Of a stretch of 64,000 nucleotides of DNA, positions 8,154 to 43,373 are shown in pieces. Made by a program: the position numbers and the translations under genes. Source of the DNA: Myxococcales bacterium (GTDB lineage: Bacteria; Myxococcota_A; Polyangia; Palsa-1104; JAEUJZ01); NCBI GenBank assembly GCA_016794365.1, contig JAEUKB010000025.1, positions 116,693 through 180,692 of the forward strand. The letters are read 5' to 3'. Position 1 is the stretch's first letter. Each line of letters opens with the position of its first letter. The notes under the pieces are model-generated. The model did no database searches, was not told the DNA's origin, and was given only the letters and a program-made list of their open reading frames with translations.

Positions 8154-9323
8154 ATGCGAAGTGTGATCTCTCAAGTGGGCGTGCTGCTCGGTAGCTTGGT
8201 ATTGCTCGGCTGTCCGCAGTCAGGCGAGATGGGCGAAGCGGGGATGCGCGGCGCTCCCGGTGAAAAGGGCGACAAAGGCGAAAAAGGTGACAAAGGCGAC
8301 AAAGGCGACACGGGAGAGCAAGGATCAGTCGGTCCGATGGGCCCCGTCGGTATGACCGGCGCCAAAGGCGACAAAGGCGACAAGGGCGACACGGGCGCGC
8401 AAGGACCAGCCGGTCCGATGGGCCCAATCGGAATGACGGGAATGACCGGAGCGACGGGCGCAGCAGGAATGACGGGCGCGCAAGGACCAGCCGGAGCCAA
8501 AGGAGACAGAGGCGAAAAGGGTGATCCTGGTCCGCAAGGTCCGACGGGGCCTGCTGGCTCTGGCGCGTATACCGAAGAGCTGGGCGGCTTTGCGGGCTTT
8601 ACCTCGGCAACGTACACCGGCGCGATGAGCGGACGACCGGCGATGCATGCCAAGTGCGAGGCCGAGTTTGCGGGCTCTCACCTGTGTCATGCGGCAGAGT
8701 ACATCCTGTCAAACTCAGCGACGAGCGTTCCGAGTCCAAACGGCGCGTGGATCGATCCCAGCACCAACGTAAGCGGCGGCACGAGCAACTCCGGTGTGGC
8801 GGTGAGCGGTCGCAGCATCTACGGCTATCACTGTGCGACGTGGAGCGACGGAACCTCGGGACGCTACGGAACCTACGTGACCACGCTGGGCACGATCCTC
8901 GAAGACGGAACCTGCAACGTGAGCCGCAGCTTGGCCTGCTGTAACGGTCCGCGCAAGACGCGCTTTGCGGGCTTTACGCCCACCAGCACAACCGGCAGCG
9001 TCGGAGGACGACCTAAGATGCATGCGCTCTGTGCGGCGGCGTTTTCTGGATCGCACCTGTGTCACGCGGCGGAATACATCCGATCCACATCAAGCGTCAC
9101 CGTTCCAAGTCCAAACGGCGCCTGGATCGATCCCAGCACCAACACGAGCGGCGGCACGAGCAACTCTGGCATCCCGGGCAGCGGTCGCAGCATCTACGGC
9201 TATCACTGTGCGACGTGGAGCGACGGAACCTCGGGACGCTACGGAACCTACGTAACCGCGCTTGGCACGATCCTCGAAGACGGAACCTGCAACGTGAGCC
9301 GCGCCGTCGCCTGCTGCTACTAA
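8154..9323 (+). CDS. collagen triple-helix (G-X-Y) repeat lipoprotein with two tandem Cys-containing C-terminal domains
   Basis: Lipoprotein signal MRSVISQVGVLLGSLVLLGC; an RBS-like AAGGAAG lies 8 nt upstream of the ATG at 8154. About 95 residues of uninterrupted GXY triplets follow (GEKGDKGEKGDKGDKGDTGEQG...GPQGPTGPAGSG). Then two roughly 120-aa repeats share conserved Cys (FAGFT..RP.MHA.C.A.F.GSHLCHAAEYI...PSPNGAWIDPSTN.SGGTSNSG...GRSIYGYHCATWSDGTSGRYGTYVT.LGTILEDGTCNVSR..ACC). Confidence 0.8.
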   Translation: MRSVISQVGVLLGSLVLLGCPQSGEMGEAGMRGAPGEKGDKGEKGDKGDKGDTGEQGSVGPMGPVGMTGAKGDKGDKGDTGAQGPAGPMGPIGMTGMTGATGAAGMTGAQGPAGAKGDRGEKGDPGPQGPTGPAGSGAYTEELGGFAGFTSATYTGAMSGRPAMHAKCEAEFAGSHLCHAAEYILSNSATSVPSPNGAWIDPSTNVSGGTSNSGVAVSGRSIYGYHCATWSDGTSGRYGTYVTTLGTILEDGTCNVSRSLACCNGPRKTRFAGFTPTSTTGSVGGRPKMHALCAAAFSGSHLCHAAEYIRSTSSVTVPSPNGAWIDPSTNTSGGTSNSGIPGSGRSIYGYHCATWSDGTSGRYGTYVTALGTILEDGTCNVSRAVACCY

Positions 9324-10566: not shown

Positions 10567-11559
10567 ATGAGCAAGCGGCTCCGCTCACTTTTGTTGGAAG
10601 AAGGTGTGGTGTCTGCGCTGCGGATGGCGCAGGCGCTGGATCTACAGTCTCGACGCAGAGGCTGCCTGGACACCTGTCTGCTAGAGCTGCGCGCGATCGA
10701 TGAGCCGTCGCTGCTTCCGTACCTCAGTCGCGCCGCAGAGCTGCCGGTGCTGGCGGACGGACTGCTCGGAACGCAGAGGCCGCTGCCTGAGGTGCTGGCG
10801 CTGTTTCCGCTGACGCTGGCTGCGCGCTTTTCGGCGGTCCCTGCACAGCTTTTAAGCGACGGTGTGCTGCAAGTGCTGGTCACGGTCGATGCCGAGGCAT
10901 CCGAGCTAGAGACGCTGTCGCACATCTTGGCCTATCGCATCGAGCCGTGGGTGGTCTGCGAGTTTCGCCATCACGAAGCGCTGTCGCTGTGCTTCGGTCA
11001 GGCGCTGCCCGCGCGCTTTGCGGAGCTGCTGGTTCAGAGTCAGCGGACTCGGCAGCGACGAGCGGTTCCGGTTCCGCTGTGGAAAGGTCACTTGCCGCGC
11101 TTCGGCAGCCTGGATGCCCCGCGAACGCTGCTGGCCCAGCGCCCGACCGAACCCATCGTGGAACCCGTCGTGGAACCCATCGTGGAACCCATCGTGGAAC
11201 CCATCGTGGAACCCGTTGTGGAACCCGTCGTGGAACCAGTCGTGGAACCCGTCGTGGAACCCGTCGTGGAACCGAGCGTGGAACCGAGCGTGGAACCGAG
11301 CGTGGAACCAGTCGTGGAACCGAGCGTGGAACCGAGCATGGAACCAGTCGTGGAACCGAGCGTGGAACCCGTCGTGGAACCGAGCGTGGAACCGAGCGTG
11401 GGACCGAGCGTGGAACCGGCTGTGCGCGATCCCGAGGTCGTCACGGTCAAAGAGCATCTTCGTCGGCAGTATTACGGTCCGGGTCGCAGCTTGGTGCGCT
11501 GGATCACCGTGAAGAGCTACAGCCACCGTCGGGCCGCTCCCGGCAAAAAGTCGTCCTAG
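10567..11559 (+). CDS. MshEN/T2SSE_N-like (GspE N-terminal, c-di-GMP-binding type) domain protein with about 25 tandem EP(V/I/S)V tetrapeptide repeats
   Basis: The N-terminal 150 aa match the two-lobed T2SSE_N/MshEN pattern (LRSLLLEEGVVSALRMAQALDLQSRRRGCLDTCLLELRAIDEPSLLPYLSRAAELPVL...LAARFSAVPAQLLSDGVLQVLVTVDAEAS). Then comes TEPIVEPVVEPIVEPIVEPIVEPVVEPVV...EPSVEPSVGPSVEPAV, encoded by a 12-bp tandem DNA repeat at about 11150-11415. Confidence 0.6.
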   Translation: MSKRLRSLLLEEGVVSALRMAQALDLQSRRRGCLDTCLLELRAIDEPSLLPYLSRAAELPVLADGLLGTQRPLPEVLALFPLTLAARFSAVPAQLLSDGVLQVLVTVDAEASELETLSHILAYRIEPWVVCEFRHHEALSLCFGQALPARFAELLVQSQRTRQRRAVPVPLWKGHLPRFGSLDAPRTLLAQRPTEPIVEPVVEPIVEPIVEPIVEPVVEPVVEPVVEPVVEPVVEPSVEPSVEPSVEPVVEPSVEPSMEPVVEPSVEPVVEPSVEPSVGPSVEPAVRDPEVVTVKEHLRRQYYGPGRSLVRWITVKSYSHRRAAPGKKSS

Positions 11560-28354: not shown

Positions 28355-28500
28355 CCCAATAGGAATCGGTTAGGAATCGATTGGGAATCGGTTGGGAATC
28401 GGTTAGGAATCGATTAGGAATCGATTAGGAATCGATTAGGAATCGGTTGGGAATCGGTTGGGAATTGCAAGAGGAATCGGTTAGGAATCGATTCCTCTGA
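28355..28500. repeat. intergenic tandem array of about 13 copies of a 10-bp unit (T/G)(A/G)GGAATCG(A/G)T, ending in a perfect 12-bp palindrome GGAATCGATTCC
   Basis: Direct reading: ataggaatcggttaggaatcgattgggaatcggttgggaatcggttaggaatcgattaggaatcgattaggaatcgattaggaatcggttgggaatcggttgggaattgcaagaggaatcggttaggaatcgattcctc. It lies between two convergent stop codons. Confidence 0.9.
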
Positions 28501-34609: not shown

Positions 34610-36538
34610 TTAAGCGGGCGGAGGTGGGACAAGCACCGACGGGGCACTTGGAGCTGCCGGAGGAGTTGGAGCCGCCGGAGGAGCCGGAGCTGCCGGAGGA
34701 GTTGGAGCCGCCGGAGGAGCTGGAATCGCCGGAGGAGCCGGAATCGCCGGAGGAACTGGAACCGACGGAGGAGCCGGAACCGACGGAGGAGCCGGAACCG
34801 CCGGAGGAGCCGGAATCGCCGGAGGAGCTGGAACCGCCGGAGGAGCTGGAACCGCCGGAGGAGTCGGAGCTACTGGTGGAGTTGGCGCAGGCTGCTTCGC
34901 CACAGGCGGTGGGGCAACCGGGACGATCGCTGGCTCTTTGACCGTTGGGGCCGTCGATGGAGCCGTCGATGGAGCCGCTGGGGCAGTCGATGGAGCTGCT
35001 GGGGCCGTCGATGGAGCCGCTGGAGCCGTCGATGGAGTCGCTGGGGCCTTGCGAATGACCGTCGGACGAGCCGGTGGAATCAGCTTGAACTCGACGCGAC
35101 GGTTCTGCGCGCGTCCGGCTGCTTGGTTGTTGTCCGCGACGGGCCGCGTCGAGCCATAGCCCACCGATTGCAGTCGGGTCGGGTCGATCCCCTTGGTGAT
35201 GAGGTACGCCTTGACAGCGTCGGCGCGCTGCTGCGACAGCGTCAGGTTGTCGCTTGGATTGCCGACGTTATCGGTGTGTCCTTGGACTTCCAGGCGCACC
35301 GTCGGCACTTCCGCGAGTGCAGCCACCGCCTGATCGAGCACCGCGAACGAGCTGGGCACCAGATCCGCCTTGTTGGGCAGGAACTGAACGCCTTCGATCT
35401 TCTTATCGACAAAGCGTGCCAGGCTCGACGGGACTTCGTCGGGGCAGCCGTCCTGATCTTGGTAGTTGTTGACTGTTTCGGGCTGCTGCGCGCACTTGTC
35501 GAGTCGATCGACGATGCCATCGCCGTCGCTGTCGATATCGGGGCAGCCTTGGTTGATCTGTGGGCCGATTTCCGTCGGACACTTGTCCAAGCGATCGACG
35601 ACGCCATCGCTGTCGGCATCGACATCGGGGCAGCCACCGTTTTCCATCGGGCCAGCTTGCTGCGGACACTTGTCGAGTCGATCGACGATGCTGTCTCCGT
35701 CGCCGTCACGATCGGGGCAGCCGCCATTCTCCGTCGGGCCTTTGTCGCTGGGACAGCGATCTTCTTTGTCGGGCACGCCGTCTTGGTCGATGTCGAGAGG
35801 CTTGGGTGGCTCGGCGGGCTTGTCGCTGCCGTAGCCGAATCGTCCGTAGACGCTGCCGAGGGCTTCGTAGTCGGGCGTGAAGCTGGGCGTCCGAATCTCG
35901 GGAACCAGCACAATGCGTCCGTCGAAGCGCAGGCCGACCCAGCGATTCAGATCGAAGCGCATACCAGCACCGGCGTGGAAGGATGCAAGCACCTCGCTGC
36001 GCAGGGGCAAGCCGGGATCGGGTCGGACGCCGATCGCGCCACCACCGGCGAGGATGAACGGCTGGAAGCGATCATTTCCGCCAAACGGCCAGCGGAACAT
36101 CAGGTGTCCGCGTCCGGTGTAGACGAGAACCTGCGCTGGTTTTTCGGCAAGCTGCGTCGGCATTGCGACGAACTCACCTTCGAGCAGGAAGTGTCGGCTG
36201 AGCCCGTATCCGATGCGCGCACCGAGTGCTGCGCTGTGACGGAGATCGCTGCCCGGTGCGGCGTAGTCGCTGCGACCGATGGCTGCCGTCGAAGAAAAGA
36301 AGTGCGCTCCGACGATGAGCGAGACTTCAAGCGGTCGATCTGCGATGGACACCGGGGCAGCGGGCGCCGCTTGGGCTGCTTTGGCCTCGGTGGACTGTTG
36401 CTCTTCGGCCCTGACCAGGCCTTCAGACGAAGCTCCGAGGAGACAGACTGCCACCGTCGGAACCGCTGCTTGCTTCCACAGCGGAAGCTGCCCGCGTGTC
36501 CGAATCCCAAGTCGTCTTTGCGCCGCACGTCGCTGCAT
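34610..36538 (-). CDS. OmpA-family outer-membrane protein with beta-barrel-like N-terminus, thrombospondin type 3 repeats, OmpA peptidoglycan-binding domain and Pro/Ala-rich C-terminal tail
   Basis: Start at the internal Met (MQRRAAQRRLG...AVCLLGASS signal). TSP3 repeats (DQDGVPDKEDRCP...DRDGDGDSIVDRLDKCP...DVDADSDGVVDRLDKCP...DIDSDGDGIVDRLDKC). OmpA-C motif (LEVQGHTDNVGNPSDNLTLSQQRADAVKAYL...NRRVEFKLI). The tail (PAAPSTA)n / (PAPPAVPAPPAIPAPPA)n is encoded by a tandem repeat at about 34620-34940. Confidence 0.8.
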   Translation of the reverse strand: MQRRAAQRRLGIRTRGQLPLWKQAAVPTVAVCLLGASSEGLVRAEEQQSTEAKAAQAAPAAPVSIADRPLEVSLIVGAHFFSSTAAIGRSDYAAPGSDLRHSAALGARIGYGLSRHFLLEGEFVAMPTQLAEKPAQVLVYTGRGHLMFRWPFGGNDRFQPFILAGGGAIGVRPDPGLPLRSEVLASFHAGAGMRFDLNRWVGLRFDGRIVLVPEIRTPSFTPDYEALGSVYGRFGYGSDKPAEPPKPLDIDQDGVPDKEDRCPSDKGPTENGGCPDRDGDGDSIVDRLDKCPQQAGPMENGGCPDVDADSDGVVDRLDKCPTEIGPQINQGCPDIDSDGDGIVDRLDKCAQQPETVNNYQDQDGCPDEVPSSLARFVDKKIEGVQFLPNKADLVPSSFAVLDQAVAALAEVPTVRLEVQGHTDNVGNPSDNLTLSQQRADAVKAYLITKGIDPTRLQSVGYGSTRPVADNNQAAGRAQNRRVEFKLIPPARPTVIRKAPATPSTAPAAPSTAPAAPSTAPAAPSTAPSTAPTVKEPAIVPVAPPPVAKQPAPTPPVAPTPPAVPAPPAVPAPPAIPAPPAVPAPPSVPAPPSVPVPPAIPAPPAIPAPPAAPTPPAAPAPPAAPTPPAAPSAPSVLVPPPPA

Positions 36539-36708: not shown

Positions 36709-37569
36709 TTACTTGATCGGGATGGTCAAGCCTAGCTGTAGGCTCATCGGGGCTACGCTGATGGGGAAGCAGACCTCGCCGTCGAGCTTGTCGCAGTCGG
36801 AGCGTCGTGAGAGCACGATCGGCGTGATGATGGCGGCGGCGACTCCGCTGGCACCGACGGCGGCAAGTGTCCACACCCACCAGCGCGAATACCAGCGCTT
36901 TTCGGTCTTGAAGACGGCTTCTTCGCGGCGCTTTTGCTCGGGCTGGATTTCCAAGATAAGGTCGCGGTCGTACTGCTCACCAGCGACGGTCGCGATGCTC
37001 AGCGTCTGTTCAAAGTAGCCGATGCGACGGACGCGGACGACGTGCGGACCGGGACGCAGCTCCAGCTCCAGCGGGGTTTCTCCTCGGAGATCTTCATCGA
37101 CGAAGACTTGGGCACCGGGCACATCCGTCGCGACCTTGAGGATGGCGAGCAGCGGCGTAAGCTCGACTTCGACGGCAACCATTCGCCCTTGGATCGCAGT
37201 GAAGTCTGACGAAAACGTGGAATAGCCACGCCGAGAGAGCACCAGCTTGTGTGGTCCGGGCTCGATCGCGGTGCGCGGCGGTAGCGGAGTGATTCCGATC
37301 AGCTTTCCATCGAGTCGAACCTCTGCTTTGGGTGGCGCACCGAGGAGCGCGAAGGCAGTCTCGTTGGGCTTGGCTTCGGTCGGAATGGGCGCGCTCGATC
37401 GGGTCGCTGGCTGTTCGGCTGCGGGACTGGGCGACGACTCACCGGACTGCGCAAAGGCTGGCCGGACGGGCCAAAGCAGTGACAGCGCACAAGCCGCGAG
37501 GAGTCCAGCGTGGTGTCCAGACCGCCCGCGTGCGATCGTCTGCTCTGTCCGACCTGAGCGAGCGTGCAT
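36709..37569 (-). CDS. PEGA-domain protein with N-terminal signal and C-terminal transmembrane helix
   Basis: Two PEGA-like repeats (VRLDGKLIGITPL...IEPGPHKLVLSRRGYSTF; VFVDEDLRGETPLELELRPGPHVVRVRRIGYFE). C-terminal hydrophobic WWVWTLAAVGASGVAAAIITPIVL. Confidence 0.6.
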   Translation of the reverse strand: MHARSGRTEQTIARGRSGHHAGLLAACALSLLWPVRPAFAQSGESSPSPAAEQPATRSSAPIPTEAKPNETAFALLGAPPKAEVRLDGKLIGITPLPPRTAIEPGPHKLVLSRRGYSTFSSDFTAIQGRMVAVEVELTPLLAILKVATDVPGAQVFVDEDLRGETPLELELRPGPHVVRVRRIGYFEQTLSIATVAGEQYDRDLILEIQPEQKRREEAVFKTEKRWYSRWWVWTLAAVGASGVAAAIITPIVLSRRSDCDKLDGEVCFPISVAPMSLQLGLTIPIK

Positions 37570-37734
37570 TGCCTGTCATTTTGTCACGCGGGAGCGGTGT
37601 CTCACAAGCTGCTTGGTTCGGTGTCCCCACAGCGTGCGGAGATTTCCCAACGATTCCCAAGTCCGTGTCTGCGTGTGTTTCCAAGTGTGTCTGTCTGTGT
37701 TCATCGCTGTGCATTCCGTAGAGCGGTCCCTCGT

Positions 37735-37854
37735 GTGGTCCTTTGTGTGGTCTTTTATGTGGTCCTTTGTGTGGTCCTTTGTGTGGTCTTTTATGTGGTC
37801 CTTTGTGTGGTCCCTTGTGTGGTCCTTTGTGTGGTCCTTTGTGTGGTCCTTTGC
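37735..37854. repeat. 10 tandem copies of a 12-bp unit GTGGTCCTTTGT (variants GTGGTCTTTTAT, GTGGTCCCTTGT) in the divergent intergenic region between the PEGA gene and the type VI secretion cluster
   Basis: Direct reading of 37733-37856. Confidence 0.9.
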
Positions 37855-38020
37855 GTAGATCGATCCCTCGCTTTTGCTGTCTGTGAAGGCAAGTAATCTT
37901 GCGCGCATAGGAGCCGTTTCCCGCTTCCATCCTCTCGAAAAATGGGTCTATAATCCTGGCCGAGGGGATGAACCAGACGTGCTTGCTGTGTGGCTCGGCC
38001 AGGCTCGTGCAACAGACAGA

Positions 38021-38434
38021 ATGCTACGGCTGCTGATCCTTGCATGCTGCCTTAGCATGGGCTGTGCAACGCGTCCGTGGCGGATGCAGATGACGCTAGC
38101 CACCGACGCAAACAACAACTCTCCTGTCTTGATTTCAGTGGTGCTTCCCAAGAGCCAACCGCTGTTCAAGAAGCTGCTGGATTTGACCGCAAAGCAGTGG
38201 TTTACACAGCGTGAACAGCTGCTGCGCGATCATCGTCGCGATCTGGAAGAGACGTACTTCGAGTTCATTCCGGGTCAGCAAGTTCCTGAGATCAATCGCA
38301 AAGTTGCGAGCAGTGTCAGCCAAGGGATTCTGTTTGTGAACTATCAGACGCCCGGCTCGCATCGCTACACCTTCGACGTAAACCAAGTGCTCAAGATCAG
38401 CTTTGCGCAGCAGAGTGTGAACCTGAGCCAGTAA
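38021..38434 (+). CDS. small lipoprotein at the head of the type VI secretion cluster, candidate TssJ
   Basis: Lipoprotein-type signal MLRLLILACCLSMGC from the internal ATG at 38021. About 137 aa, immediately upstream of tssK, the usual tssJ position. No direct sequence recognition of TssJ. Confidence 0.45.
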   Translation: MLRLLILACCLSMGCATRPWRMQMTLATDANNNSPVLISVVLPKSQPLFKKLLDLTAKQWFTQREQLLRDHRRDLEETYFEFIPGQQVPEINRKVASSVSQGILFVNYQTPGSHRYTFDVNQVLKISFAQQSVNLSQ

Positions 38435-38452
38435 TGGGAAGTAGGAATCGGA

Positions 38453-39793
38453 ATGCCGAGCGCGCATGATCTTCCTCCGCAGATTCAATGGCATGAAGGA
38501 ATGCTTCTGGCCCCGCAGCACTTTCAGCAGATGGTGCAGCGAACGGAAAAGCTCCTTCACTACCATGTGAGTCTGGGGCTTCCCTATCAGTTCGGAGTGA
38601 CGCGACTTCGTTATGAATCGACGCAGCTCTTTACCGGAACGCTGCGTGTGACAGAGCTGGAAGCCGTGCTTCCCGATGGCCTGGTGGTGTCCTTCCGAAC
38701 GGGGCCCGCTGCGGAGCTTCAGGTCGATCTGAAATCCCATGCAGAGAGCGCAAAACACGCGCCGATTCCTATCTATCTGGTGGTTCCGATCGAACGGACA
38801 GGGGGCAGCAAAGGCGAAGGAGATCTGGGTCGATTTCTTTCGATTCCCGGCGATGAAGTCGATGACGAGGTAAGCGGTGGTCGTCCGCTGCGGATTCCTC
38901 GTCTAAAACCAAGGCTGCGCTTGATTGCGGGGTCAGAGCCGCCACCGCCGCGCTTTGTGGCGCTTCCGCTGCTGGCCGTGATCTACAAAAACGGTGCGTT
39001 TGTTCCTGCGGACTACATCCCGCCGCTGATTCGGGTGGAAGTAGACTCTGCGCTGGGCGAGCTGTGCGCGCAAGTCAGCAGCCTGATTCGCGCCAAAGCG
39101 ACGTATCTGCTGGAAGTGATTCGATCTCCTGCGATTACGACCAAGCCACAAGCGATCGAAGAAAACCGCAGACTGCTGTCGCAGCTGGTCATGAACTTGC
39201 CTCCCTTTGAGGCACTTTTGGCGACGGGAATCAGCCATCCTTATGCGCTCTATGTTGCGCTGACAGCGGTGGCCGGAAGTGTGGCAGGCGTTGGCAATCA
39301 GCTCATGCCGCCGGTCTTTCCTGCGTACGATCACCTGAACCTTCGGCGATCCTTTGCGGAGGTCATTCAGTTTGTGAATCAGTCTCTCAGCGACGGAATT
39401 TCCGAAGCGTTTACTGCGCTTCCGTTCCGCAATGAAAACAATCTGTTTGCACTTCAGTTTGAGCGTGAGTGGACGCGCCGCACGGTGGTTGTGGGCTTCA
39501 AAGGGGCGCCAGGGGCAACGGATCAGCAGATTACAGAGTGGGTGACGAGCAGTCTGATCGGAACAGCCAGTCGCTTCAAAGTGCTGCGTGAGCGACGAGT
39601 GCTGGGAGCGAGTCGGACCCCCATTGATCGGTTGGAAGGTCTGGTGGCAACGCGCGGAATGCTGCTGTTTCAGCTTCAGATAAACCCAGAGTTTATTGTT
39701 CCAGGCGAGCCGCTTGTGATTGGAAACTCTGTGGAAAAGCCACCGGGAATTCGTCCGGCAGAGGCCTCTCTATATGTCGCAAACAAAGAGTAG
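38453..39793 (+). CDS. tssK: type VI secretion system baseplate subunit TssK
   Basis: N-terminus PPQIQWHEGMLLAPQHFQQ is the conserved TssK start; 446 aa; position between the lipoprotein and tssL. Confidence 0.85.
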   Translation: MPSAHDLPPQIQWHEGMLLAPQHFQQMVQRTEKLLHYHVSLGLPYQFGVTRLRYESTQLFTGTLRVTELEAVLPDGLVVSFRTGPAAELQVDLKSHAESAKHAPIPIYLVVPIERTGGSKGEGDLGRFLSIPGDEVDDEVSGGRPLRIPRLKPRLRLIAGSEPPPPRFVALPLLAVIYKNGAFVPADYIPPLIRVEVDSALGELCAQVSSLIRAKATYLLEVIRSPAITTKPQAIEENRRLLSQLVMNLPPFEALLATGISHPYALYVALTAVAGSVAGVGNQLMPPVFPAYDHLNLRRSFAEVIQFVNQSLSDGISEAFTALPFRNENNLFALQFEREWTRRTVVVGFKGAPGATDQQITEWVTSSLIGTASRFKVLRERRVLGASRTPIDRLEGLVATRGMLLFQLQINPEFIVPGEPLVIGNSVEKPPGIRPAEASLYVANKE

Positions 39794-41928: not shown

Positions 41929-43373
41929 TGCCTAAGACTACGCTTCTTTCTGCCTTGTTCGCGGTGGGATTGCTGGCTGGCTCTGGCTGCACGCTCACCA
42001 TGAATTATCAGCAGTGTACGCAAGACAGTGACTGCACTGCAGCGGATGGAACGCCGGGCTACTGCTCGTCGGATCAGCTCTGTCTGCCGAACACTCCGCT
42101 CGACAATCTGTGTACGATTACGATTCCTGATGCACCGTCTCCCAATGCGGTCCACTTGGGGGCTCTTTTGGATCTGCGTGACAGAAACGGAAGACTCGCA
42201 GAAGCGCATCGCTTGCTCGCGCTGAAGCTCGGGGTCAAGCAGATCAATGAGCTGGTGCAGCTTGATGGATCACGTCCGCTGGCAATCGATGTCTGCAATG
42301 TCGGAACATCGGCGATCGATGCAGACAATGCGACCAAGATCCTGATCGAGCAGCGCAATGTCGTTGCGATCATCGGACCGAACACTGCGTCGGCTGCGAC
42401 CAACATGATCGGTCGGATCAAAGCGGCTGGTGTGCCCACGATTTCGCCCGCGATCATGGACAGCGGAATCGCAGATGCGGCCAGCCAGGGTCTGTTTTAT
42501 CGCTTGGCTCCCGTCGAAAGAGAGCAGGGACTACAGCTTGTCCGCGAGTTGGTGACTCTTTCTGGTGGAAAGAGCACTTCGCAGCTGGGACTTTTGTCTG
42601 TCACCGATTCCTATGGTGAAAACATTCGGCGGAAATTTACGCCAGAGTGGCAGCGGCGCGATCCGAACAACAAGACCGATCGATTCTTTTCGTACAAAGA
42701 CAACGATGCCAACTTGCTCAGTGTCACGACCAAGACGCTGCTGGATGCCAAGCCCAGCTTTGTGGTGCTGATTCCGGGATCAAACAGTCATCAGGTGATT
42801 GGTGGCTTCGCAGATCTTCCGTTTGATCCAAAAAATCCTGGCTCATTCGAGAGTACGACTCAGATTCTGTCCGCTTCAAGTGGCCGTACTGGAGAGCTGA
42901 TCCGTCTGGCGCGTACTGGTGATGACAAGACGAAGAATCATCTGTCGCGCATTACCGGAGTCGCTCCGCTGAGCTTCATTGATAGTCAGGAAGGGGCTGA
43001 CTTTAAGTCGAGCTTTACCGCTACCAATCCGGGTCTGGCGCTGGAAGACGACTTCATGGTGGGCTACACCTACGACGCGCTGTTTGTGCTGGGTGCGGCC
43101 TCTGCCACATTCAAAGGAGCGAGCCGACCGGACCAGATTCTGTCTGTGCTGCGACGGCTCAATGGCAATGCCAACTCTCTGTCTCTGACTCCGCGACTGT
43201 TTAACGAAACGGTTCAGAAGCTGGCGCAGCAGCCGACTGATCCGTTCACTCTGCTCGGTGTTACAGGTGCGATTCGCTTTCAGACGGACGGTGGCCGAGA
43301 TCCGGTCCTGCTGGAGCGCTGGAAGATCGACGTAGCCAGCGGAGTGTATGTGAACACTCCGGCCAACATGTAA
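41928..43373 (+). CDS. periplasmic-binding-protein type I (Leu/Ile/Val-binding/receptor ligand-binding family) lipoprotein (non-core gene in the type VI secretion cluster)
   Basis: Lipoprotein signal (LLAGSGC). PBP1-like blocks (VVAIIGPNTASAATNMIGRIKAAGVPTISPA; FYRLAPVEREQG; KPSFVVLIPGSNS). Its start overlaps the upstream stop. Confidence 0.55.
   Translation: MPKTTLLSALFAVGLLAGSGCTLTMNYQQCTQDSDCTAADGTPGYCSSDQLCLPNTPLDNLCTITIPDAPSPNAVHLGALLDLRDRNGRLAEAHRLLALKLGVKQINELVQLDGSRPLAIDVCNVGTSAIDADNATKILIEQRNVVAIIGPNTASAATNMIGRIKAAGVPTISPAIMDSGIADAASQGLFYRLAPVEREQGLQLVRELVTLSGGKSTSQLGLLSVTDSYGENIRRKFTPEWQRRDPNNKTDRFFSYKDNDANLLSVTTKTLLDAKPSFVVLIPGSNSHQVIGGFADLPFDPKNPGSFESTTQILSASSGRTGELIRLARTGDDKTKNHLSRITGVAPLSFIDSQEGADFKSSFTATNPGLALEDDFMVGYTYDALFVLGAASATFKGASRPDQILSVLRRLNGNANSLSLTPRLFNETVQKLAQQPTDPFTLLGVTGAIRFQTDGGRDPVLLERWKIDVASGVYVNTPANM

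Follow-up and report, generated by a model that had tools for sequence, protein, structure and literature searches.

The window, by which we mean the whole 64-kb stretch of DNA analysed here, carries a minisatellite of ten 12-bp units in the 409-bp gap separating a leftward PEGA/OmpA-like operon from a rightward, near-complete type VI secretion system (T6SS) cluster. This array is probably a hypermutable intergenic variable-number tandem repeat (VNTR), with an effect that would be absent or only weakly modulatory. As judged from the alignment with related species described below, it is neither part of the conserved promoter module of the T6SS cluster nor a conserved operator array. Intergenic VNTRs and minisatellites are well represented in bacteria, for example by the MIRU-VNTR loci of Mycobacterium tuberculosis and by the markers used in MLVA, and the array belongs with them both by unit size (head-to-tail, non-coding units within the range of about 10–100 bp) and by polymorphism (whole-unit copy differences among close strains, seen in short-read assemblies). 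Decayed units at the edge are a further likeness, and membership of this class does not require a function. The array differs from these loci by its occurrence in an uncultured Myxococcales directly upstream of a T6SS promoter module, and by a unit sequence unrelated to any named family. Variable tandem repeats of bacteria have been reviewed (PMC3899988).

Direct reading of the plus strand gave the consensus GTGGTCCTTTGT for the head-to-tail units. The ten tandem repeats described by an earlier reading of the DNA made from the sequence alone (hereafter the sequence-only reading) were confirmed in this way and by Tandem Repeats Finder, which reported positions 37725–37853 with a period of 12, 10.8 copies, 89% matches and a score of 209. 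When the units were set in register, six were perfect copies of GTGGTCCTTTGT and the other four carried one or two changes: two were GTGGTCTTTTAT, one was GTGGTCCCTTGT and the last was GTGGTCCTTTGC, with a C at its end. The order of the units was A B A A B A C A A A', and the succession ABA-ABA reveals at least one duplication of a 36-bp block (ABA). The base content was strongly skewed, with A at only 2 of the 120 positions of the plus strand. Allowing up to two mismatches, 13 matches to the unit were found in the 64-kb window, compared to 3.7 ± 2.0 in shuffled sequences. Ten of the 13 corresponded to the array itself, and the three matches outside it showed no enrichment against the 3.7 expected. 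Folding of the array as single-stranded DNA was not better than that of shuffles on either strand (z-scores of +1.1 and −0.7). The T3-4 tracts recur every 12 bp, out of phase with the 10.5-bp helix, which would make a strong planar bend unlikely.

Just to the left of the array, the segment 37723–37734 (GCGGTCCCTCGT) matched the consensus at 9 of 12 positions. The TG-rich character of the left flank, also pointed out by the sequence-only reading, proved to be real and to be accompanied by a significant 12-bp periodicity. From position 37640 to 37734, successive units in the array register matched the consensus at 5–9 of 12 positions, and the lag-12 match was 0.46 versus 0.26 in shuffles, with 0 of 2000 shuffles as high. 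On account of this periodicity we consider the left flank to be a continuation of the array that has decayed. No such periodicity was found in the right flank (p = 0.17). The features of the region are listed in the table.

Table. Location of the array and of the neighbouring genes and candidate control elements in the window.
Feature	Position	Strand	Basis or remark
OmpA-like outer-membrane protein gene with TSP3 repeats	34610..36538	−	beyond (downstream of) the PEGA gene
PEGA-domain protein gene	36709..37569	−	PF08308, 9e-19
PEGA-proximal block GCGTGACAAAAT, common to the window and L015	37570..37592	−	two species only
Decayed older units in the TG-rich left flank, same 12-bp register	37640..37734	no strand	lag-12 periodicity
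Core array, ten 12-bp units	37735..37854	no strand	direct reading, Tandem Repeats Finder, register, unit matching
Conserved palindrome GCAAGTAATCTTGC, candidate regulator site of the T6SS promoter	37889..37902	+	AATC..GC core invariant in eight species
Candidate core promoter CTTCCAT-18 nt-TATAAT	37924..37954	+	eight-species alignment
151-aa lipoprotein gene in the TssJ position, first of the T6SS cluster	37979..38434	+	GTG start inferred from cross-species conservation
TssK (T6SS_VasE) gene	38453..39793	+	remaining cluster runs to about 56688

Many independent contigs of the same species were recovered from metagenomes by exact-protein look-ups, and they belonged to three lineages. In lineage A the flanks were 100% identical to the window (SRR12425358, SRR10547830/31, SRR23459705), whereas lineages B and C diverged from it by about 0.5% and 1.1%, respectively. 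Copy numbers, read from short-read assemblies that may collapse tandem repeats, were two in lineage C (array-spanning contigs of SRR14932623 and SRR14932625, and a contig of SRR14932627 which begins at the flanking unit), three in ERZ27296097, ERZ27296217 and ERZ27296211, five in ERR1879294 and ERR1879311, and ten in the window. The flanks of the array-spanning assemblies were about 99–100% identical. The variation in copy number between strains that the sequence-only reading had anticipated was therefore found in these assemblies, and invariance was not seen. Each allele came from one project and one assembler (k141 for three units, k127 for five, Logan k31 for two). We regard the two-, three- and five-unit alleles as real, because arrays of 24–60 bp fit within one read or k-mer and the two-unit allele has a diagnostic 31-mer that the longer alleles do not contain.

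The comparison of the contigs L003 (three units) and L004 (five units) showed how fast these repeats change. Over approximately 13.2 kb the two were identical except for one SNP and three indels, and each of the three indels corresponded to whole tandem-repeat units, amounting to 24 bp in the array and to 36 and 78 bp in the repeats that encode the tail of the OmpA-like protein. These differences imply that repeat change far outpaces substitution. In this organism, then, sequence of no other class changes as fast as tandem repeats, of which the array is one example among several. An exact search for two units of the array in the JGI metagenome collection, which the two-unit allele would escape, gave 0 matches, and the species was found only in ENA and Logan assemblies. 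The literature search returned no publication on the sample project PRJEB19935.

The Logan contigs (k = 31) of lineages A and B break inside the array. L001 and L002 reproduce the first two units of the window and L006 and L010 its last three; L001 and L006 match the two ends of the array base for base. The end of L001 would be the branch point expected at k = 31 for an array that, like that of the window, contains the "A B" pair twice. The presence of the array accounts for the fact that short-read assemblies of the T6SS locus break exactly there. That the array is a product of mis-assembly, or else a coding repeat giving four-residue units in a small protein, is extremely improbable. Against an artefact, independent Logan contigs reproduce both array ends exactly and break where a k = 31 graph should. 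A coding role would agree with the period, a multiple of 3, and with the frames open across the array on both strands, where the possible repeat peptides are KDHT, KGPH or QRTT (minus strand) and WSFV and others (plus strand). However, none of six array-spanning ORFs reached the curated cut-off of a Pfam family, the weak match obtained being to a low-complexity sperm-protein family (21.1 bits for a cut-off of 21.2). Gene callers were silent at the array on the full contigs L003 and L004, and short contigs gave only edge-truncated calls antisense to the PEGA gene there. Moreover, the ORFs overlap the PEGA gene or the conserved promoter, and the sister species have no counterpart of them.

The history of the tract could be followed in related species. 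The nearest genomes by TssK were the Myxococcales MAGs L013 to L016, with 96%, 91%, 90% and 76% amino-acid identity, respectively, and the array was absent from sister species with a TssK in this range. In the closest species (L013, L028, L029), the sequence TGTGGTCC(G)TTTG is followed by GGAGTCTGCTTG and GGAGTCCGCGTC and, further on, by 2.1 copies of CCAGTTGTGCGT. These units are all in one register, with a lag-12 periodicity at p = 0.002. The shared periodicity implies that a 12-bp-periodic tract predates the split between the window species and its closest sister. This tract would be decaying in the sister, and would have been re-expanded and homogenised lately in the window species.

Elsewhere in the clade the equivalent place is occupied differently. 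In L035 (positions 2105–2186) there is an unrelated 11-bp array, 7.5 copies of ACTCCCACCCT, and in L034 (positions 1–84) an unrelated 27-bp unit present 3.1 times, in a contig which begins inside the array. The 27-bp array of L034 has expanded from a sequence of which L014 and L037 have one copy each. In L030 to L033 there is no array, and the spacer upstream of the shared promoter module measures only about 80 bp. Strong tandem arrays were thus present in this 300–450-bp region in three of about eight related species (the window species, L034 and L035). This is somewhat above the background density and could be a hint of selection. The top strands of the L034 and L035 arrays are C-rich and almost G-free, and both arrays lie downstream of a co-directional gene; their resemblance to a Rho-loading (rut) tract is offered as an idea only.

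The setting given by the sequence-only reading, between divergent PEGA/OmpA and T6SS genes, was correct. Between the ATG of the PEGA gene and the left edge of the array there are 165 bp. Among the NCBIfam models, the one that best matched the OmpA-like protein encoded beyond the PEGA gene was that of myxobacterial TraB, with a score well below the cut-off. On the right side, the product of the first T6SS gene has the lipobox LSMGC. The label "tssJ-like" given to this gene holds by its position but not by family, as the protein has no Pfam or NCBIfam match. After the lipoprotein gene come those for TssK, DotU/TssL, a TPR protein, a periplasmic-binding-like protein and the IcmF-related TssM, and the cluster continues with ImpA/TssA, VipA, VipB, Hcp, the gp25-like TssE, TssF, TssG and VgrG. 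A regulator gene was not found within this cluster.

The neighbour on the left of the T6SS promoter varies by species. It is the PEGA/OmpA pair in the window species and in L015, and a co-directional gene with repeated domains in L013, L014 and L035. This variation places the array at a synteny breakpoint, possibly the edge of an island. The window contains no tRNA gene, hence no tRNA-linked island boundary at the array. Just past the OmpA-like gene, the segment 32685–34552 contains a tyrosine-recombinase gene (phage integrase family) and a truncated Ser/Thr protein-kinase ORF.

Alignment of the region preceding the first T6SS gene in eight species revealed a module that is ungapped, fixed in spacing and largely invariant. 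After the palindrome GCAAGTAATCTTGC comes the heptamer CTTCCAT (37924–37930), invariant in all eight species, then a spacer of exactly 18 nt and the hexamer TATAAT (37949–37954), of which TATA.T is invariant and the fifth base is A in seven of the eight. The G-rich Shine-Dalgarno sequence (GAGGGGA, 37962–37968, in the window) followed by a GTG or TTG start codon (at 37979 in the window) completes the module. The window contains a single match to the CTTCCAT-18 nt-TATAAT pattern, no second copy of the palindrome with 0–1 mismatch, and no palindrome-like site with up to three mismatches to the left of the array. The module would comprise a core promoter and one regulator site, and it offers a concrete target for studies of T6SS regulation in this clade.

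The right end of the array is separated from the palindrome by 34 bp and from CTTCCAT by 69 bp. With a transcription start placed near 37961, it would span roughly −107 to −226 of the T6SS promoter. The sequence-only reading had situated the array exactly where the promoters must lie; the module conserved in eight species is entirely to its right, 34–100 bp away. A change of promoter spacing, proposed in the same reading, does not fit this geometry either. Because the array is outside the interval between CTTCCAT and TATAAT, whole-unit changes leave the −35/−10 spacing unaltered and could not switch the core promoter. In promoter-internal contingency loci, such as the TA repeats between hifA and hifB of Haemophilus influenzae and the poly-G tract of porA, the tract lies between the −35 and −10 elements and one unit switches the promoter. 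Like loci of the hifA/hifB type, the array is a mutable repeat flanked by a divergent gene pair and has cell-surface genes in its vicinity, but it is located about 70 bp upstream of the −35-like element. Its position is in none of the places where a contingency tract is expected (−35/−10 spacer, 5' UTR or ORF).

On the PEGA side, L015 was the only other species with a divergent PEGA neighbour, and the sequence that it has in common with the window hugs the PEGA start codon. This block is possibly the promoter or the leader of the PEGA operon. The array thus appears to lie upstream of both candidate core promoters, in a stretch that is not conserved. A scan for sigma-70 promoters and intrinsic terminators found none on either strand between positions 37300 and 38300; it requires a good −35 element, and the TATAAT surfaced only through the cross-species alignment. 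By eye, no sigma-54 (−24/−12) or ECF-type pattern consistent across species was seen in the conserved block. The −35-like CTTCCAT is unlike TTGACA, and for this reason a dedicated sigma factor or activator may act at the module. A perfect 10-nt inverted repeat, CCTGGCCGAG/CTCGGCCAGG (37955–37964 and 37994–38003), brackets the Shine-Dalgarno sequence and the GTG of the first T6SS gene. It showed no apparent conservation in L013, by eye, and could be a translational hairpin or due to chance.

It is conceivable, although we consider it unlikely, that the array is a contingency or rheostat locus in which slippage shifts the spacing or phase of distal elements relative to the T6SS (or PEGA) promoter. 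This reading predicts a heritable and reversible expression, graded or ON/OFF, as with the TAAA tract of nadA in Neisseria meningitidis, a tract of 4-bp units with NadR operators on both sides and IHF between them, which acts through operator spacing (PMC2791445). Of the known systems, nadA would be the best precedent for a graded effect through the spacing of distal elements. In both cases the variable tract is upstream of the core promoter and not inside it, and adjoins a regulator-binding site, which for the array is the conserved candidate operator 34 bp away. The hypervariability in otherwise identical backgrounds, the surface and antagonism genes on the two sides and the unrelated arrays found at the same position in L034 and L035 would also agree with a contingency function. 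The length differences observed were all between samples. The array differs from nadA by its 12-bp units and by its single candidate operator, on the right. With no similar palindrome found on the left at up to three mismatches, a flanking-operator geometry built on this site is unlikely, although an unrelated left-hand site is conceivable. In addition to its location outside the −35/−10 interval, several observations argue against such a function. L030 to L033 use the same promoter with their short upstream spacer only. In L034, L035 and L014 the DNA on the left contains no more than the 3' terminus of a gene running in the same direction, with nothing obvious to re-space, and an equally variable array of the window lies between convergent genes, without a promoter.

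The arrays found upstream of the module in the clade have 12-bp units repeated 2–10 times, 11-bp units repeated 7.5 times (L035), 27-bp units repeated 3.1 times (L034) or decayed 12-bp units (L013). The broader idea that they were selected as evolvable "tuning knobs", adjusting the expression of the T6SS (or of surface proteins) strain by strain, seems to us quite unlikely.

The sequence-only reading had also suggested iterated sites for a regulator. In this hypothesis each 12-bp unit would be bound by a regulator or a nucleoid protein, and copy number would set the occupancy. The ctxAB promoter of Vibrio cholerae provides the precedent: its TTTTGAT heptads are sites for ToxR, ToxT and H-NS, are AT-rich and reach into the promoter (bioRxiv 10.1101/2021.05.14.444153; PMC4240540), and their number varies between strains (bioRxiv 10.1101/2021.05.14.444153). 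Like the heptads, the units of the array are direct repeats of fixed period just upstream of a promoter, strain-variable in number, and six of the ten are identical. Recent expansion, however, yields homogeneous units without selection. The motif of a binding array recurs at other targets or in orthologous promoters, whereas the 12-bp unit was absent from the orthologous T6SS promoters of seven other species that have the whole downstream module, and occurred at chance level elsewhere in the 64 kb. No copy of the palindrome was present on the left side, no regulator gene was found in the cluster, and a 12-bp period turns successive sites by about 51 degrees around the helix. Taken with the absence of the unit from the orthologous promoters, these observations make iterated binding sites very unlikely.

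A role of the array as RNA was also considered, and it is highly improbable. The minus strand, (ACAAAGGACCAC)n, would be transcribed as the leader of the PEGA operon or as a small RNA, a CA-rich molecule with one GGA per unit that might serve as a ribosome standby site or as a protein-titrating element. The minus-strand sequence is indeed unstructured, there is no terminator between the array and the PEGA gene, and TCC/GGA is present in the unit of every array seen (the present array, the one at 28360 in the window, and those of L034 and L035). This last coincidence is nevertheless a weak one, of roughly 1 in 40 by a rough estimate. The minus strand showed no promoter-like site rightward of the array, the conserved PEGA-proximal block suggests instead a promoter close to the start codon, and an Rfam search of the whole window returned zero matches.

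We propose that the hypermutable VNTR evolved as follows. The array would grow and shrink by whole 12-bp units, and at least once by a 36-bp block, probably by replication slippage (slipped-strand mispairing) or unequal recombination. It would occupy an unconstrained spacer at the left boundary of the conserved T6SS cluster and upstream of the core promoters on either side, which diverge, in a host genome which appears generally prone to repeats. It would be young and species-specific, its homogeneous units reflecting the recent re-expansion of an older 12-bp-periodic tract of which decayed units seem to persist in the sequence left of the array and in the sister species nearest to the window species. 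We infer that the array is under little or no selection. If it has an effect, this would be graded, through the change in array length, from 24 to 120 bp, and in helical phase, 12 bp being about 1.14 turns. The DNA varied in this way would lie between the T6SS module and whatever is leftward of it, the PEGA promoter included. A graded effect of the nadA or ctxAB type is possible by analogy, but unsupported by the sequence.

If the array is neutral, it can serve to tell strains apart at high resolution in a population of uncultured Myxococcales that is represented in many metagenomes. If copy number tunes transcription, slipped-strand variation would be a further source of diversity in T6SS expression among members of one population, next to those already known. 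Should the tuning-knob reading be true, this would be the first T6SS under the control of a repeat tract, and a contingency-type mechanism would exist in a free-living social predator and not in a host-adapted pathogen. A full-text literature search, limited to the library searched, retrieved no paper linking a T6SS promoter with tandem-repeat variation.

The window as a whole is unusually rich in tandem repeats, as are the loci of related species. At least eight arrays with a Tandem Repeats Finder score above 100 were found in the 64 kb, mostly in-frame coding repeats, for instance at 11149–11417 (12 bp, 22 copies), 8283–8437 and 35493–35740. A second non-coding array, at 28360–28490, consists of about 12 units of 11 bp (TAGGAATCGGT / TAGGAATCGAT). 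It starts 8 bp after the stop codon of a Ricin-lectin/TSP3 gene, between convergent genes, and the units it contains are not the same in L003/L004 as in the window. The variability of an array in this position indicates that instability is not tied to promoters. The 10-mer TAGGAATCGG, taken from its unit, also occurs at 38442–38451, 38762–38771 and 42604–42613 in the window and at 1739–1747 in L013. The first of these sites directly precedes the tssK start codon, as in most related species. The next two are internal to T6SS genes, and that of L013 lies in the upstream region of its T6SS. We rejected TAGGAATCGG as an enriched motif, since it was not an outstanding k-mer once the arrays were masked, and its recurrence is probably due to coincidence and to its resemblance to a Shine-Dalgarno sequence. 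Tandem repeats of 18 bp and 21 bp (34656–35048) encode the tail, rich in Pro and Ala, at the C-terminus of the OmpA/TSP3 protein, and within them the 36-bp and 78-bp indels distinguishing the otherwise identical L003 and L004 are in frame. These in-frame changes point to a surface-protein tail of variable length adjoining the T6SS.
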